NCBI GenBank assembly: GCA_965212115.1
Contig: CBDBUR010000002.1
Coordinates: forward strand, 689,731-753,730
Source of the DNA: Alphaproteobacteria bacterium
GTDB taxonomy: Bacteria; Pseudomonadota; Alphaproteobacteria; JAPOUT01; G958296285
Direction of reading: 5' to 3'
Length of the DNA stretch: 64,000 nucleotides
The notes under the pieces are model-generated. The model was not told where the DNA came from, did no database searches, and worked only from the letters and a program-made list of their open reading frames with translations. Both the position numbers and the translations under genes were made by a program. Of the stretch, positions 3,536-6,910 are shown piece by piece (the stretch's first letter is position 1; every line of letters starts with the position of its first letter).

Positions 3536-4159
3536 ATGAACCATCACCCGCGTCTTCCAAGCCAATGCGCAAAACAAACCCAAGCCTATAATCAATTCTT
3601 GCGCGCTGCTCACCGAAGACAAATCGCGCAAACCAATCTGACCCTCTATGCGCGCGATCAAGCGCTGCCGCAAAAACTCTCTCTGCTCGCTTCCTTGTCA
3701 TTTCAAAACGAACATGAAATCAAAATCGGATTTAGAAATATGCCCTTCACTCAACAGATCAACACTCTATGCGCACCATGGAAATTTCATGAATTATCGC
3801 CAGAGCTCATCCGTGCCGCGCTTGCCCATATCCTCAACGATCTGATCAAAACTCTGCCCAGCGATATCACTCTGCATGACTGGCGCATGAACACCGCCCC
3901 TCCCAAAGACCTCGAAATCCATATCGGCGGCGAACTCAAAAATCAAACGACAGCCATTCAATTGAACATCTTTACCAGCGCCAATTTCCCCTTTTGTCAA
4001 TTCGGGCAAAAGCTCTCTTTGCGCCCGGCGGTGAAAAAAAAATGGCCGCCGCAGCTCTATATCAACTTCCCGATAGATATCGCCGCCGCGCATATCCCAG
4101 CAAAAGACCTATCCTCTTTGACCAGCGGCGATGTGATCTTGCTGTCCCCCTGCAATTAA
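3536..4159 (+). CDS. Hypothetical T3SS protein; possible N-terminal portion of a split SctQ (ends in a truncated SpoA-like segment)
   Basis: Located where sctQ normally follows sctP. The C-terminus ...PAKDLSSLTSGDVILLSPCN* matches the first half of a SpoA/FliN motif (L..L..GDVi.L) and then terminates. Its stop overlaps the stop of the inverted sctV. Confidence 0.35.
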   Translation: MNHHPRLPSQCAKQTQAYNQFLRAAHRRQIAQTNLTLYARDQALPQKLSLLASLSFQNEHEIKIGFRNMPFTQQINTLCAPWKFHELSPELIRAALAHILNDLIKTLPSDITLHDWRMNTAPPKDLEIHIGGELKNQTTAIQLNIFTSANFPFCQFGQKLSLRPAVKKKWPPQLYINFPIDIAAAHIPAKDLSSLTSGDVILLSPCN

Positions 4160-6264
4160 ACCGTCACACGACCTAGAGGCTGCAATGTGATCTCCGATGT
4201 GATCTCCTGATGCGACAAAACTGGAATCTCCGGCAGATCAATCTCAATAATACGGCGAACATAACGCCGAATGTCCATCGCCGTGATCAGCACCGGCATA
4301 TGGTCGCCGTCAAGTGCTGCGCCCACCATAGACTTAACGCTCTCAACAATCTTCTTCGTGATCTCCGGATCAAGCGCAATATAGCTCGCCACCGAGGTCT
4401 GCCTTATCCCATTGCGCACGGTTTCCTCAATCTCGCTGTCGAGCAGAAAGGCCGGAAGAATATTATACCCCACCGAATATTGATAGCTGATCTGGCGCGA
4501 CAAAGAAGAACGTATATGTTCCACAAGCAAAATCGGATCCTTCTCTTTGGCGCCCCATTCGATGATCGCGCTTAATATCTGCCGCAGATCACGAATCGAA
4601 ACATATTCCTGCACAAGACGGCGAAATAATTCCGCAATCGTTTGTATCGGCAAGGCACGCTGCGCCTCCTTGACTAGATCGGGCGCGCTCTCCTCCATGC
4701 GCGAGAGCAAAAACTTCGTCTCCTGTATCCCGACAAAACTCGAAGCATATTTCGCAAGCACGGTCTCACAGTGATATTGAATCAACTCAAGCGGCTTCTT
4801 ATACTTGAAACCTGAACCGTCAAGCCGCAATAGATGAGCCTGATCAACCCACAAAGTCGAGTGGTTCGATAAAAAACTCTCGCCCGCGCGATAAGGAATC
4901 TTGAAAACATCCAAATTTTCAGCCTTATCCATCACAAAAACACTTGCCGGATCAATCATGCCGTCAGCTGCCGGAATTTCACCAATAAATATCTTATATT
5001 GATTGTTCTCAAGATTCGGATTGACCCGCGCTTCGATCACCGGCAGCGGCGTGCCAAGCCGATAATAAAGCGTCAAACGCGCCTGATTGATCTGATCGCG
5101 CATCTCGTGCGGCGGTGCCAGCGCTAGCGCGGCGCTCGGCAGCTCCACCAAAGCCGGAAGCGTCGGCGCAAAAATCGGATCACGCGCCGCCGAAAACTTC
5201 TTCCCCCCAGCAGGGCGATCTGGTGCCACAGGCGCCGCACTTTGAACCTCTTCATCTTCCCAACCCGCCTGCTTGCGAAGCGTCAATGTGCCAATCAACG
5301 CAGGCGCGCCTAAAACTGCCGCAAGCACAAGAAAAATCATGCTCGGAAACCCCGGCAAAAAAGCCATCACAACCAACATCGCCGAAGCAATCAATAAAGC
5401 GCGCGGCTGCGCACTCACCTGTCTGCCAATATCCCGACCCAAATTCGCATCATTCACACCGTCCGAAACCCGCGTGACCATAATCCCCGCCGTGATCGAA
5501 ATGAATAACGCCGGAATCTGCGCAATCAAACCATCACCAATCGATAAAATAGAATAAATATGTATCGCCTCACTAAAACTCAGACCACGCTGCAAAACTC
5601 CAATCCCTAAACCACCCAAAAGATTCACAAACACAATAATCACCGAAGCAATCGCATCACCCTTGACGAATTTCATCGCCCCATCCATCGACCCGTAAAG
5701 CTTGCTCTCTTGTTGAATCCGCGCGCGCATCTCACGCGCCTCATCCAAAGTGATCGCACCCGCGCGCATATCGGCATCAATGCTCAACTGCTTGCCCGGC
5801 AGCGCATCCAACGAAAAACGCGCACTCACCTCCGCAACACGCTCCGCGCCCTTCGTTATCACAATAAATTGAACAATCGTCAAAATAAGAAAAATCACTA
5901 GACCCACAACTAAATTGCCGCCAACAACAAAATTCCCAAATGCCTCAACAATCTGACCCGCATCACCCTGCAATAAAATCAACCGCGTCGTCGAAATCGA
6001 CAAAGCCAGTCGAAACAACGTCGTGATCAATAAAACCGCCGGAAATGACGAAAAATCTAGCGGCGAACTCAAATAAACCGCCACCATCAATAAAACCACC
6101 GCAATCGATATGTTGAACGCGATCAGCGCATCAACCAATGGCGTCGGCAACGGCAATATCAGCATGAAAATTACCGATACGATGAAAGTCGCTAAAATGA
6201 CGTCCTGACGCTCCGATATCTTCTCCAAAAATGGATTCAATCGCGTAAATAAAGGCATAAACAA
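4156..6264 (-). CDS. sctV: T3SS export gate protein SctV (YscV/LcrD/InvA, FHIPEP family), 702 aa
   Basis: N-terminus MFMPLFTRLNPFLEKISERQDVILATFIVSVIFMLILPLP. Multi-TM N-domain plus a large cytoplasmic C-domain. Typical length. Confidence 0.9.
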   Translation of the reverse strand: MFMPLFTRLNPFLEKISERQDVILATFIVSVIFMLILPLPTPLVDALIAFNISIAVVLLMVAVYLSSPLDFSSFPAVLLITTLFRLALSISTTRLILLQGDAGQIVEAFGNFVVGGNLVVGLVIFLILTIVQFIVITKGAERVAEVSARFSLDALPGKQLSIDADMRAGAITLDEAREMRARIQQESKLYGSMDGAMKFVKGDAIASVIIVFVNLLGGLGIGVLQRGLSFSEAIHIYSILSIGDGLIAQIPALFISITAGIMVTRVSDGVNDANLGRDIGRQVSAQPRALLIASAMLVVMAFLPGFPSMIFLVLAAVLGAPALIGTLTLRKQAGWEDEEVQSAAPVAPDRPAGGKKFSAARDPIFAPTLPALVELPSAALALAPPHEMRDQINQARLTLYYRLGTPLPVIEARVNPNLENNQYKIFIGEIPAADGMIDPASVFVMDKAENLDVFKIPYRAGESFLSNHSTLWVDQAHLLRLDGSGFKYKKPLELIQYHCETVLAKYASSFVGIQETKFLLSRMEESAPDLVKEAQRALPIQTIAELFRRLVQEYVSIRDLRQILSAIIEWGAKEKDPILLVEHIRSSLSRQISYQYSVGYNILPAFLLDSEIEETVRNGIRQTSVASYIALDPEITKKIVESVKSMVGAALDGDHMPVLITAMDIRRYVRRIIEIDLPEIPVLSHQEITSEITLQPLGRVTV

Positions 6265-6400
6265 TCTTTGCTCTCATAGTCGGTTTTATACTTAATCTAC
6301 CAATTTTTTACCTCTATGGAGAATTATCACTATTAGTTTAACTCTCAACTTGCTCGCAATAAGCTAACTTAACTCATGAGGGAACAAATCGGGCGACAGC
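6265..6400. promoter_or_regulatory. AT-rich divergent intergenic region between sctV (-) and sctQ-C/sctRSTU (+); presumed divergent promoters
   Basis: 136-nt non-coding AT-rich spacer between divergently transcribed T3SS operons. No specific box identified. Confidence 0.3.
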
Positions 6401-6910
6401 ATGACAGACACAAAAGATCAACAAGACAAACACGCGCAAGATAACTCCGTTCAAGATGAACATCAAAATGAGCAGGACAATTCTGAGCCAAAAGTCTCCG
6501 AAAAACCCACCACATCACAAGCCAACGCAATCAGACCCGCTGCGCCTCAACCCACCGCGCAAAACCCCTCCCCTCCCGAAGAACAGCCAGATAAGCCCAA
6601 CCCCAATCAAACAGACGCCAAAACTAACACCGAAAATATCGAACCTGACAGCCAGATAATCGATGAAAGCGATGAAACAGAAAACAGCGCTCTGGAAAAC
6701 ATCCATGTGAAGATCAATTTTCGCATCGGTGAAATCTCAATGCCGGTTAATGAACTCGCCGCGCTCACGCCCGGCTTCACGCTCACAGAACTGCCAGGCC
6801 TGATCTTTCCACGCGCACAAGCCGTCGCGTCGGGACGCGCCTTCGCAGAAGGCGAACTCATCGAGATCGATGGCAAAATCGGCTTTCGAATCACAAAACT
6901 CTTGCCATAG
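6401..6910 (+). CDS. sctQ: SctQ C-terminal SpoA-domain protein (YscQ-C/FliN-like) with an acidic disordered N-terminus
   Basis: C-terminal HVKINFRIGEISMPVNELAALTPGFTLTELPGLIFPRAQAVASGRAFAEGELIEIDGKIGFRITKL is a complete SpoA fold motif. It sits directly upstream of sctRSTU. Confidence 0.7.
   Translation: MTDTKDQQDKHAQDNSVQDEHQNEQDNSEPKVSEKPTTSQANAIRPAAPQPTAQNPSPPEEQPDKPNPNQTDAKTNTENIEPDSQIIDESDETENSALENIHVKINFRIGEISMPVNELAALTPGFTLTELPGLIFPRAQAVASGRAFAEGELIEIDGKIGFRITKLLP

Follow-up and report, generated by a model that had tools for sequence, protein, structure and literature searches.

The question raised by this locus is whether sctQ, which encodes the pod (C-ring) protein of the injectisome sorting platform, exists here as two genes with an oppositely oriented third gene between them. 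[quoted passage not shown] A first-pass annotation had given the plus-strand order as sctD, an sctP-like gene, a 207-aa ORF, an inverted sctV, a 169-aa SpoA ORF, and sctRSTU. These ORFs and strands were confirmed, and a TyeA-like gene was placed before sctD. The two ORFs of interest are termed QN (207 aa) and QC (169 aa).

168..599, plus strand: TyeA-like small ORF (Pfam TyeA, E 0.0019, under the curated cutoff; start codon uncertain)
851..2392, plus strand: sctD (Yop-YscD_cpl, 2.9e-14; TIGR02500, 1.3e-17, under its cutoff)
2438..3520, plus strand: sctP/HpaP-like ruler gene (Pfam HpaP, 1.5e-7)
3536..4159, plus strand: QN, SctQ N-terminal piece, 207 aa (hhalign, family profile, fold, dN/dS)
4156..4159, both strands: overlapping convergent stops of QN and sctV (sequence ...TGCAATTAAACC)
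4156..6264, minus strand: sctV, export-gate protein (FHIPEP, 7e-219; TIGR01399, 5e-267, 887.8 bits, over its cutoff)
6265..6400, no strand: divergent intergenic region sctV/QC (alignment of 7 relatives)
6401..6910, plus strand: QC, SpoA ORF, 169 aa (FliMN_C, 6.5e-9; TIGR02551 positions 200-300)
6920-7597, plus strand: sctR (Pfam/NCBIfam; operon shared with QC)
7602-7874, plus strand: sctS (Pfam/NCBIfam; operon shared with QC)
7871-8656, plus strand: sctT (Pfam/NCBIfam; operon shared with QC)
about 8661-9704, plus strand: sctU (Pfam/NCBIfam; operon shared with QC)
15453-15923, minus strand: sctO (Pfam YscO)
15932-17488, minus strand: sctN (Pfam ATP-synt_ab and T3SS_ATPase_C)
17268-17954, minus strand: sctL (Pfam T3SS_SCTL/FliH)
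17951-18679, minus strand: sctK (Pfam YscK/T3SS_LEE_assoc, weak match)

QN closes the sctW-tyeA-sctD-sctP operon as its last gene. The TyeA-like ORF is flanked by sctD and by sctW, which lies beyond the left edge of the window; relatives have HrpJ/sctW at this position, followed by an ORF of 102-130 aa. The product of sctD is the inner-membrane ring protein with a cytoplasmic FHA-like domain, and its start is probably downstream of 851. A tandem repeat (87 nt x 3.3) was located inside sctP at 2696-2979 using tandem repeat finder. The sctV gene converges with QN (tail-to-tail) and diverges from QC (head-to-head), and QC opens the QC-sctRSTU operon. For sctV, an ATG at 6258 (700 aa) is a more likely start than the annotated one, and the 700-aa form is that on record. 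The genes sctC, O, N, L, K, and J occupy the minus strand at 13.8-19.4 kb; the sorting-platform partners among them (sctO, N, L, and K, 15453..18679) are thus encoded away from QN and QC. No further gene resembling sctQ turned up among the ORFs that were scanned between 1 and 29.5 kb.

The overlap of the sctV and QN stops had been noted previously and is real: the TAA that ends QN (4157-4159) and the sctV stop codon (4156-4158, minus strand) have bases in common. The gap at this junction is -4 nt in the window and ranges from -44 to +33 nt in 11 loci. Across loci, the tail-to-tail junction is often overlapping. The accompanying premise, that sctV mostly lies elsewhere in the same orientation, needs a correction: sctV is already opposite sctQ-R-S in the Ysc-type loci of Vibrio, Photorhabdus, Aeromonas, and Pseudomonas (L008, L009, L019, L022, L023, L028, L041, L059). 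The oddity of the present locus is therefore the position of sctV between the sctQ pieces, not its orientation.

Promoter or operator sites are presumed to lie within 6265..6400, where a conserved block (TTATCACTATTAGTTTAACTCT, 6324-6345) was seen in the alignment of 7 relatives. No match to the sigma-70 consensus was found in this intergenic region, and promoter-like and terminator-like sites at the locus showed no excess over the shuffled expectation. The conserved block was considered as a regulon motif and rejected, since the window contains only one copy.

The identity of QN was established by profile methods. Its homology is to the N-terminal ~200 residues of full-length SctQ, and it is colinear with 13 such proteins over 194 columns (hhalign, 79.5% probability, E 1.5e-5). 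A profile of the 19-member QN family matched the full-length sctQ upstream of sctR in Vibrio and Photorhabdus with E-values of 3e-8 to 1e-6, the matches spanning residues 4-199 of the about 320-residue SctQ, and 11 of the 19 members matched TIGR02551 (SctQ). A FliM/CheC-like fold was predicted for the N-domain; the AF2 model had a pLDDT of 39.7 with 5 close homologues and became confident after 14 remote members were added. QN is the N-terminal piece of SctQ, and the SctQ/FliM-like character anticipated for the 207-aa ORF was borne out by these results. Pfam alone gave no match for QN, and the QN profile found nothing significant among PDB sequences, with only the tail matching, weakly, HrcQB-C and FliN. 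The parts of QN are as follows.

3548..3562, plus strand: residues 5-9 (PRLPS), N-terminal motif (conserved; aligns to the SctQ N-terminus)
3563..4015, plus strand: residues about 10-160, FliM-middle/CheC-like domain (confidently folded in the model)
4049..4147, plus strand: residues about 172-204, truncated SPOA1 (TIGR02551 positions 124-169)

Residues P5, L7, and P8 are invariant across the close clade. At the other end, the half-SpoA ending described in the first-pass annotation stands, but the C-terminus quoted there does not: the real end (...LSSLTSGDVILLSPCN, followed by the stop) is four residues longer. QN stops about 4 residues past the GDVI (GDVILL) motif, so only the first third of SPOA1 is kept (the first ~30 of ~75 domain residues). 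This tail aligns to residues 14-44 of HrcQB-C (an 84-residue chain) and to the start of the FliN SpoA domain, matches that are not significant alone; at pLDDT 53-77, it is not confidently folded as a monomer (residues 172-204).

QC was divided into two parts.

6401..6682, plus strand: residues 1-94, N-terminal extension (net charge -15)
6683..6910, plus strand: residues 95-169, SPOA2 domain, FliN/HrcQB-C-like (FliMN_C, 6.5e-9)

The extension is acidic and disordered, with few hydrophobic residues and no conserved sequence; in 6 relatives, it is 70-111 aa long with a net charge of -14 to -24. SPOA2 is complete in QC, which matches the SPOA2 of full-length SctQ at 98% (hhalign). Its solved relatives are HrcQB-C (PDB 1O9Y, 2.2e-7, the best), YscQ-C (3UEP, 5.8e-6), and FliN (8umd_D, 3.8e-4).

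The 207-aa and 169-aa ORFs had been proposed to be the parts of one ancestral sctQ. Each is indeed homologous to the matching part, but their sum falls short by ~40 residues. On Vibrio SctQ, QN covers residues 4-199 and QC residues 243-315, leaving 200-242 unmatched; on TIGR02551 (300 positions), QN ends at 169 and QC begins at 200. The second part of SPOA1, which these ~40 residues make up, is encoded nowhere, and the -4 nt between QN and sctV leave no room for an SPOA1 remnant. The locus accordingly lacks a complete SPOA1, and SPOA2 is not on the same polypeptide as the N-domain, but on QC, which is the only piece that adjoins sctR. Both pieces missed the NCBIfam SctQ cutoff of 100.8 bits (QN, 21 bits; QC, 55.8 bits). 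The canonical SctL-binding surface, an SPOA1-SPOA2 heterodimer as in SpaO, cannot form here.

An assembly artefact at the junctions (about 4150 and 6270-6400) was considered because the gene order is unusual; nothing else speaks for it. Its probability is negligible: QN with a convergent sctV is present in the window and in 10 other independent assemblies (NCBI, ENA, and Logan; different samples and assemblers), which answers the earlier concern about misassembly. The full flanking gene order is kept in L001, L081, L082, L087, and L090, and L089 keeps it except for sctT/sctU; the contigs of L083, L086, L088, and L092 end within or just after sctV. At the same position, these relatives carry a QN homologue, not an unrelated protein. 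The sctV adjacency was found at 11 of the 14 QN loci examined. In the three distant ones (L084, L085, L091), the operon ends at QN and is followed by unrelated genes, with sctV absent beside QN. All of these genomes are metagenome-assembled; the lineage belongs to uncultured Alphaproteobacteria, with chromosome-scale contigs, where available, of about 1.0-2.3 Mb.

Among 1.84 billion proteins, the QN family comprised 15 representative clusters, each of 206-253 aa and ending right after GD[VI]I, and all 19 family members examined end at the truncation point or add non-homologous tails only. A JGI metagenome scan with a narrower QN alignment returned zero relatives. The dN/dS of QN was 0.14-0.33 (e.g., 0.25 at a dS of 0.32), compared to 0.02-0.09 for sctV and 0.26-0.47 for sctP; both SctQ pieces are under purifying selection. 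These data bear on the idea that sctQ was recently disrupted, and became a pseudogene, by an inversion in a decaying T3SS, for which the small, probably host-associated genome and the truncated SPOA1 might be cited. That idea is extremely improbable and is effectively refuted by the end-point shared by the 19 diverged family members, the dN/dS values, and the syntenic loci. The fold of QN is confident as well, every other core gene is intact, and a search for rearrangement scars at sctV found neither flanking inverted repeats nor a discontinuity in GC skew, with sctV following the local strand skew.

The identity of QN among relatives is 22-66% where that of sctV is 72-92%. This fast evolution, the incomplete SpoA part, and the report that the free Spa33-N product of Shigella is dispensable for secretion (PMC13614641) could mean that QN is no longer a pod protein and has another role (e.g., as an SctK-like adaptor or a chaperone), while QC alone forms the platform as a FliN-like oligomer. 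We consider such recruitment improbable: the system has its own SctK gene, QN is colinear with SctQ from the N-terminal motif to the start of SPOA1 and is retained in the T3SS operon at all 14 loci, and fast evolution is general among SctQ N-domains. Given the homology of QN and QC, their conservation, and the selection on them, it is likely that the locus encodes a functional, ancient, permanently split two-gene SctQ that is characteristic of a T3SS lineage of uncultured Alphaproteobacteria. The natural two-gene SctQ put forward in the first-pass annotation is thereby supported, the arrangement being kept across diverged relatives at the dN/dS given above.

How the two genes arose is a separate matter. 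Their creation by a rearrangement, as originally suggested, is plausible. An old rearrangement with its breakpoint inside SPOA1 would explain truncation and separation in one step, and the arrival of sctV may have caused the break. No single inversion from a Ysc or Hrp1 layout yields the observed order; at least two events are needed. Since L084, L085, and L091 have no sctV beside the same truncated QN, sctV is not linked to the break in every case, and the link may have arisen secondarily. It is possible, if rather doubtful, that the split came first, as an HrcQA/HrcQB-like adjacent pair or as dispersed modules, and that sctV landed later, with the second part of SPOA1 lost separately. Adjacent QA (248 aa)/QB (100 aa) pairs do exist in other lineages (e.g., L029), and the QN of L084 (P0017), one of the loci without sctV, is the most divergent member. 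Such a history, however, needs two events (a split and an exact deletion of the rest of SPOA1) instead of one breakpoint. Also, sctV adjacency persists at 11 of 14 loci, where QN identity falls as low as 22%, and the P0013 cluster, whose context (without sctV) was taken from member P0024 in L091, is placed by a crude UPGMA tree amid members that adjoin sctV, which suggests a secondary loss of adjacency.

Two-gene SctQ proteins are already known from the HrcQA/HrcQB of P. syringae (PMC3574062, PMC4832279), an Hrp1 T3SS. Common to both arrangements are an N-terminal and an SPOA2 polypeptide, with the SPOA2 piece directly upstream of sctR. HrcQA and HrcQB are, however, adjacent in one operon, whereas QN and QC are separated by a 2.2-kb opposite-strand sctV and belong to different operons. 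HrcQA is described with a complete SpoA1 (PMC4832279); after the GDV motif, the HrcQA-like ORF of L029, which was used in place of P. syringae HrcQA itself in the alignment, has 34 residues, compared to about 4 in QN. The present system does not group with Hrp1: in a neighbor-joining tree of sctV, the named outgroup that lies nearest, L003, has an sctW-sycN-yscX-yscY-sctV operon of the Ysc type, and the YscK and YscO Pfam matches likewise indicate Ysc. The different breakpoint and the Ysc-related lineage point to a split independent of that of HrcQA/HrcQB. The split SctQ is an old, lineage-wide variant of the P. syringae arrangement, from which it differs in that the breakpoint lies inside SPOA1 and the pieces are non-adjacent.

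In SpaO, Spa33, YscQ, SsaQ, and HrcQ of Xanthomonas, a single gene with an internal translation start is used. Like QN and QC, these systems have a long N-domain product and a short SPOA2-only product, and their N-terminal motif and N-domain are colinear with QN. QN differs in having no SPOA2 and little of SPOA1, which makes an intramolecular SPOA1-SPOA2 pseudodimer impossible, and QC differs in having a gene and a promoter region to itself, along with the 70-111-aa acidic extension. In flagellar FliM, the C-terminal SpoA domain is complete and the N-terminus binds CheY. The CheC-like middle domain and the FliN-like SpoA domain of FliM/FliN are present in QN/QC, but the SpoA domain of QN is truncated and the context is that of an injectisome (sctC, needle, translocators, effectors). 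FliM/FliN has itself been compared with SctQ-FL/C2 and HrcQA/HrcQB (PMC4832279), and a free Spa33-N product is reported in Shigella (PMC13614641). Another lineage-conserved split of a core gene around an opposite-facing gene is the rhcC1/rhcC2 secretin of Rhc clusters (PMC3574062), although there it is sctC that is split, a TPR protein lies between, and the T3SS family is another.

How the split SctQ might be assembled can be proposed by analogy. An N-terminal docking motif of SctQ (SpaO residues 3-10) is bound by SctQ-short (PMC13059759), and the affinity of the SpaO-C dimer for SpaO 1-145 corresponds to a Kd of about 1 uM (bioRxiv 10.1101/648071). QC may similarly form SPOA2-SPOA2 dimers that dock on the N-terminus of QN, with PRLPS as the putative docking strand. 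Work on SpaO, Spa33, FliM, and FliN suggests that the N-domain of QN would bind SctK. SctL could be bound by the QC dimer, as FliH is by FliN, or by a composite in which QC completes the SpoA fragment of QN in trans. As a result of the split, expression of QN would be tied to the gatekeeper/ring operon and that of QC to the export-apparatus operon; with the pieces in separate operons, their ratio would be set transcriptionally, not by internal translation initiation. In a bolder and unlikely version, the pod has no canonical SPOA1-SPOA2 module: QC would complete in trans the SPOA1 fragment of QN, which is of low confidence in the monomer model (either by fragment complementation or through an open-ended strand swap), and the QN/sctV junction would be kept because convergent transcription couples pod and export-gate levels. 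If true, completion in trans would mean a pod architecture and an SctL-binding surface unseen in any studied injectisome.

The only source name found for the QN family was "hypothetical protein", so systems of this kind would be recorded without a full sctQ by automated T3SS detection. In what stoichiometry SctQ and SctQ-short occur in the pods, and in what architecture, is a matter of continuing debate (PMC13614641, PMC13059759). The lineage offers a natural experiment in which the N-domain and SPOA2 are permanently apart and most of SPOA1 is gone; if functional, it is informative about which modules of SctQ are essential and about how SctL is bound. Beside FliM/FliN and HrcQA/HrcQB, it represents a further, apparently independent split of the FliM-FliN-type module.

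The type III secretion (T3SS) locus was laid out from an ORF map with Pfam and NCBIfam scans, which returned the gene order and strands described in the first-pass annotation:

168-599, plus strand: TyeA-like ORF (weak match)
851-2392, plus strand: sctD
2438-3520, plus strand: sctP, HpaP-type
3536-4159, plus strand: QN, 207-aa ORF
4156-6264, minus strand: sctV (FHIPEP, 7e-219; TIGR01399, over its cutoff)
6401-6910, plus strand: QC, 169-aa SpoA ORF
after QC, to 9704, plus strand: sctR, sctS, sctT, sctU
further along the window, minus strand: sctC, sctO, sctN, sctL, sctK, sctJ
further along the window, minus strand: SseC-like translocator with its TPR chaperone; putative IpgD-like effector

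The ORFs scanned in 1-29.5 kb included no second sctQ; the larger ORFs sampled past about 28 kb were chromosomal housekeeping genes. An EgtB (ergothioneine synthesis) gene and GlcD/E/F glycolate oxidase genes adjoin the T3SS island (36876-38228 and 27972-32046) and are still present in this small genome. Within sctP (2438-3520), an 87-nt (29-aa) unit occurs in 3.3 tandem copies (95% matches) at 2696-2979; the SctP proteins of relatives span 212-486 aa, suggesting that the ruler length varies through gain and loss of repeats. The C-terminal region of an 893-aa protein (25205-27886, minus strand) is an IpgD/SopB-type phosphoinositide phosphatase (Pfam IpgD, 4e-38); judged by its sequence, this protein is likely a T3SS effector and would point to a eukaryotic host. 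A STAS-domain gene (anti-sigma-antagonist-like; 13462-13809, minus strand), directly upstream of sctC within the T3SS cluster, is a possible partner-switching regulator, for which the Bordetella btr system provides a parallel.

QN (C-terminal end ...GDVILLSPCN) had been proposed as an N-terminal SctQ piece that Pfam or HHpred should recognize. Pfam was blank, and the NCBIfam SctQ match was weak and restricted to model positions 124-169 of 300. Yet when the QN clade was compared using hhalign to 13 full-length SctQ proteins (each encoded immediately before sctR in a related locus), a single colinear alignment was obtained (79.5% probability, E 1.5e-5), in which QN residues 5-206 occupied template columns 13-210. 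The profile of the 19-member QN family matched full-length SctQ (E 3e-8 to 1e-6) at residues about 4-199 of about 320, and TIGR02551 was matched by 11 of the 19 members; all of these results concur with the weak NCBIfam match. An AF2 model calculated from the 19-sequence alignment had an overall pLDDT of 84.1, with residues about 10-160 at 85-96 and the final 45 at 53-77. At its N-terminus, QN carries a conserved P-x-L-P motif that lines up with the N-terminus of SctQ. The tail matches HrcQB-C over residues 14-44 of an 84-residue chain (a match that is weak alone but agrees with the other evidence) and appears to be just the opening portion of a SpoA domain.

The last 75 residues of QC constitute a complete SPOA2, the second SpoA domain of SctQ (98% probability in hhalign against SPOA2 of full-length SctQ). 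Its sequence matches in the PDB were HrcQB-C (1O9Y, 2.2e-7), YscQ-C (3UEP, 5.8e-6), and FliN. Residues 1-94 (window 6401-6682) are acidic (net charge -15), hydrophobic-poor, and of low complexity. An N-terminal extension of 70-111 aa (net charge -14 to -24) was present in every relative examined (L001, L081, L082, L087, L089, L090); its presence and charge are kept, but its sequence is not conserved.

The proposal that QN and QC are the two parts of one sctQ holds, with one caveat. Each is colinear with the matching SctQ region (residues 4-199 and 243-315, respectively, of Vibrio SctQ), but roughly 40 residues that complete SPOA1, the first SpoA domain, have no counterpart in either. Because the QN-sctV gap is -4 nt in the window (-44 to +33 nt in relatives), there is no spare DNA for them. 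The stop-codon overlap noted earlier was evident in the sequence: the QN TAA shares bases with the sctV stop. These convergent 3' ends are tight or overlapping in all cases (window 4156-4159 and 10 related loci). The QN/sctV junction of the window showed no terminator-like site, so the transcripts probably overlap as antisense. On the other side, divergent sctV and QC share a 136-bp region holding a conserved 22-nt block, TTATCACTATTAGTTTAACTCT (6324-6345), that is unique in the window, common to L001, L081, L082, and L083, and partial in L087. This block could serve as an operator or a promoter element.

The QN family, as recovered with an exhaustive profile search across 1.84 billion representative proteins, comprises 15 clusters, all of 206-253 aa, whose members stop just past GD[VI]I or have short unrelated tails. 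The sole source names found were "hypothetical protein [Alphaproteobacteria bacterium]". Genomic context was obtained for 13 loci besides the window, and syntenic relatives bore out the arrangement: QN is followed by convergent sctV in 10 of them (L001, L081, L082, L083, L086, L087, L088, L089, L090, L092), with QC-sctRSTU next where the locus is long enough (L089 has sctR and sctS only, as the contig ends). Identity to the window in these loci falls to 22% for QN and is 72-92% for sctV. Several also have the same far-side chromosomal neighbors (a KpsF-like SIS/CBS gene and a TonB-dependent receptor), a sign of vertical descent. Purifying selection acts on QN (dN/dS 0.14-0.33; one unsaturated pair, 0.25 at dS 0.32), which places it between sctV (0.02-0.09) and sctP (0.26-0.47). 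Plus-strand GC skew is strongly negative over window 1-16000 (-0.09 to -0.56), even across minus-strand sctV; composition therefore tracks strand bias, not coding direction. Misassembly is ruled out by recurrence of the junction in the 10 other loci, recent inversion of sctV by the conserved order and by the lack of a skew discontinuity or flanking repeats at sctV, and pseudogenization by the QN dN/dS and family-wide conservation.

In a neighbor-joining tree of sctV, the window clade is monophyletic. Its nearest neighbor is L043, a contig labeled Klebsiella pneumoniae MAG; the nearest alphaproteobacterial outgroup, L003 (another small genome, a 1.6-Mb MAG), has a canonical one-strand Ysc operon at 5328-10139: sctW (fused YopN-TyeA)-sycN-yscX-yscY (a YscY-like TPR gene)-sctV. 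sctV had been called inverted, and it does lie opposite sctQRSTU; in Ysc-type loci, however, it is usually on the strand opposite sctN-O-P-Q-R-S-T-U, so this orientation is ordinary. What is special is its placement between the sctQ pieces and the loss of sctN and sctO from the sctP-sctQ neighborhood. No single inversion converts Ysc or Hrp1 order to that of the window. Possibly the split came first and sctV arrived later: in three distant members (L084, L085, and L091), sctW-x-sctD-sctP-QN gives way to unrelated genes, so that QN stands without sctV. A breakpoint inside SPOA1, which we favor, would account for truncation and separation in one event.

SctQ encoded by two genes has a precedent in HrcQA/HrcQB of P. 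syringae (PMC3574062, PMC4832279), with FliM/FliN as the flagellar counterpart. Here, by contrast, the break is inside SPOA1 instead of past it, the pieces are non-adjacent and in different operons, QC has a long acidic extension, and the T3SS family is Ysc-related, not Hrp1. Adjacent HrcQA-like (248 aa) and HrcQB-like (100 aa) ORFs occur upstream of sctR in L029 (13585-14649; Azotimanducaceae, a gammaproteobacterial MAG), so the adjacent split extends beyond P. syringae; unlike QN, this HrcQA-like ORF continues for 34 residues beyond the motif.

In Salmonella, a dimer of SpaO-short (SPOA2) docks onto residues 3-10 of full-length SpaO (PMC13059759) and has a Kd of about 1 μM for the N-domain alone, SpaO 1-145 (bioRxiv 10.1101/648071); the binding partner of the N-domain is SctK, and that of SPOA1-SPOA2 is the SctL N-terminus (PMC13614641, PMC4443714). 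Given the alignment of the P-x-L-P motif with the SctQ N-terminus, QN would, by analogy, most likely bind a QC dimer through that motif, with its N-domain sitting on SctK. Binding of SctL would most likely fall to QC dimers (as in FliN-FliH) or to the SpoA fragment of QN once QC has completed it in trans. QN ends the gatekeeper/ring operon and QC, presumably driven from the 136-bp divergent region, heads that of the export apparatus; we infer that their expression is uncoupled.

The homology of QN and QC and the conserved gene order uphold the two-gene SctQ, the main earlier interpretation, as a real and ancient variant that looks functional. It is unannotated in databases, and the QN/QC split represents a natural dissection of the SctQ modules.
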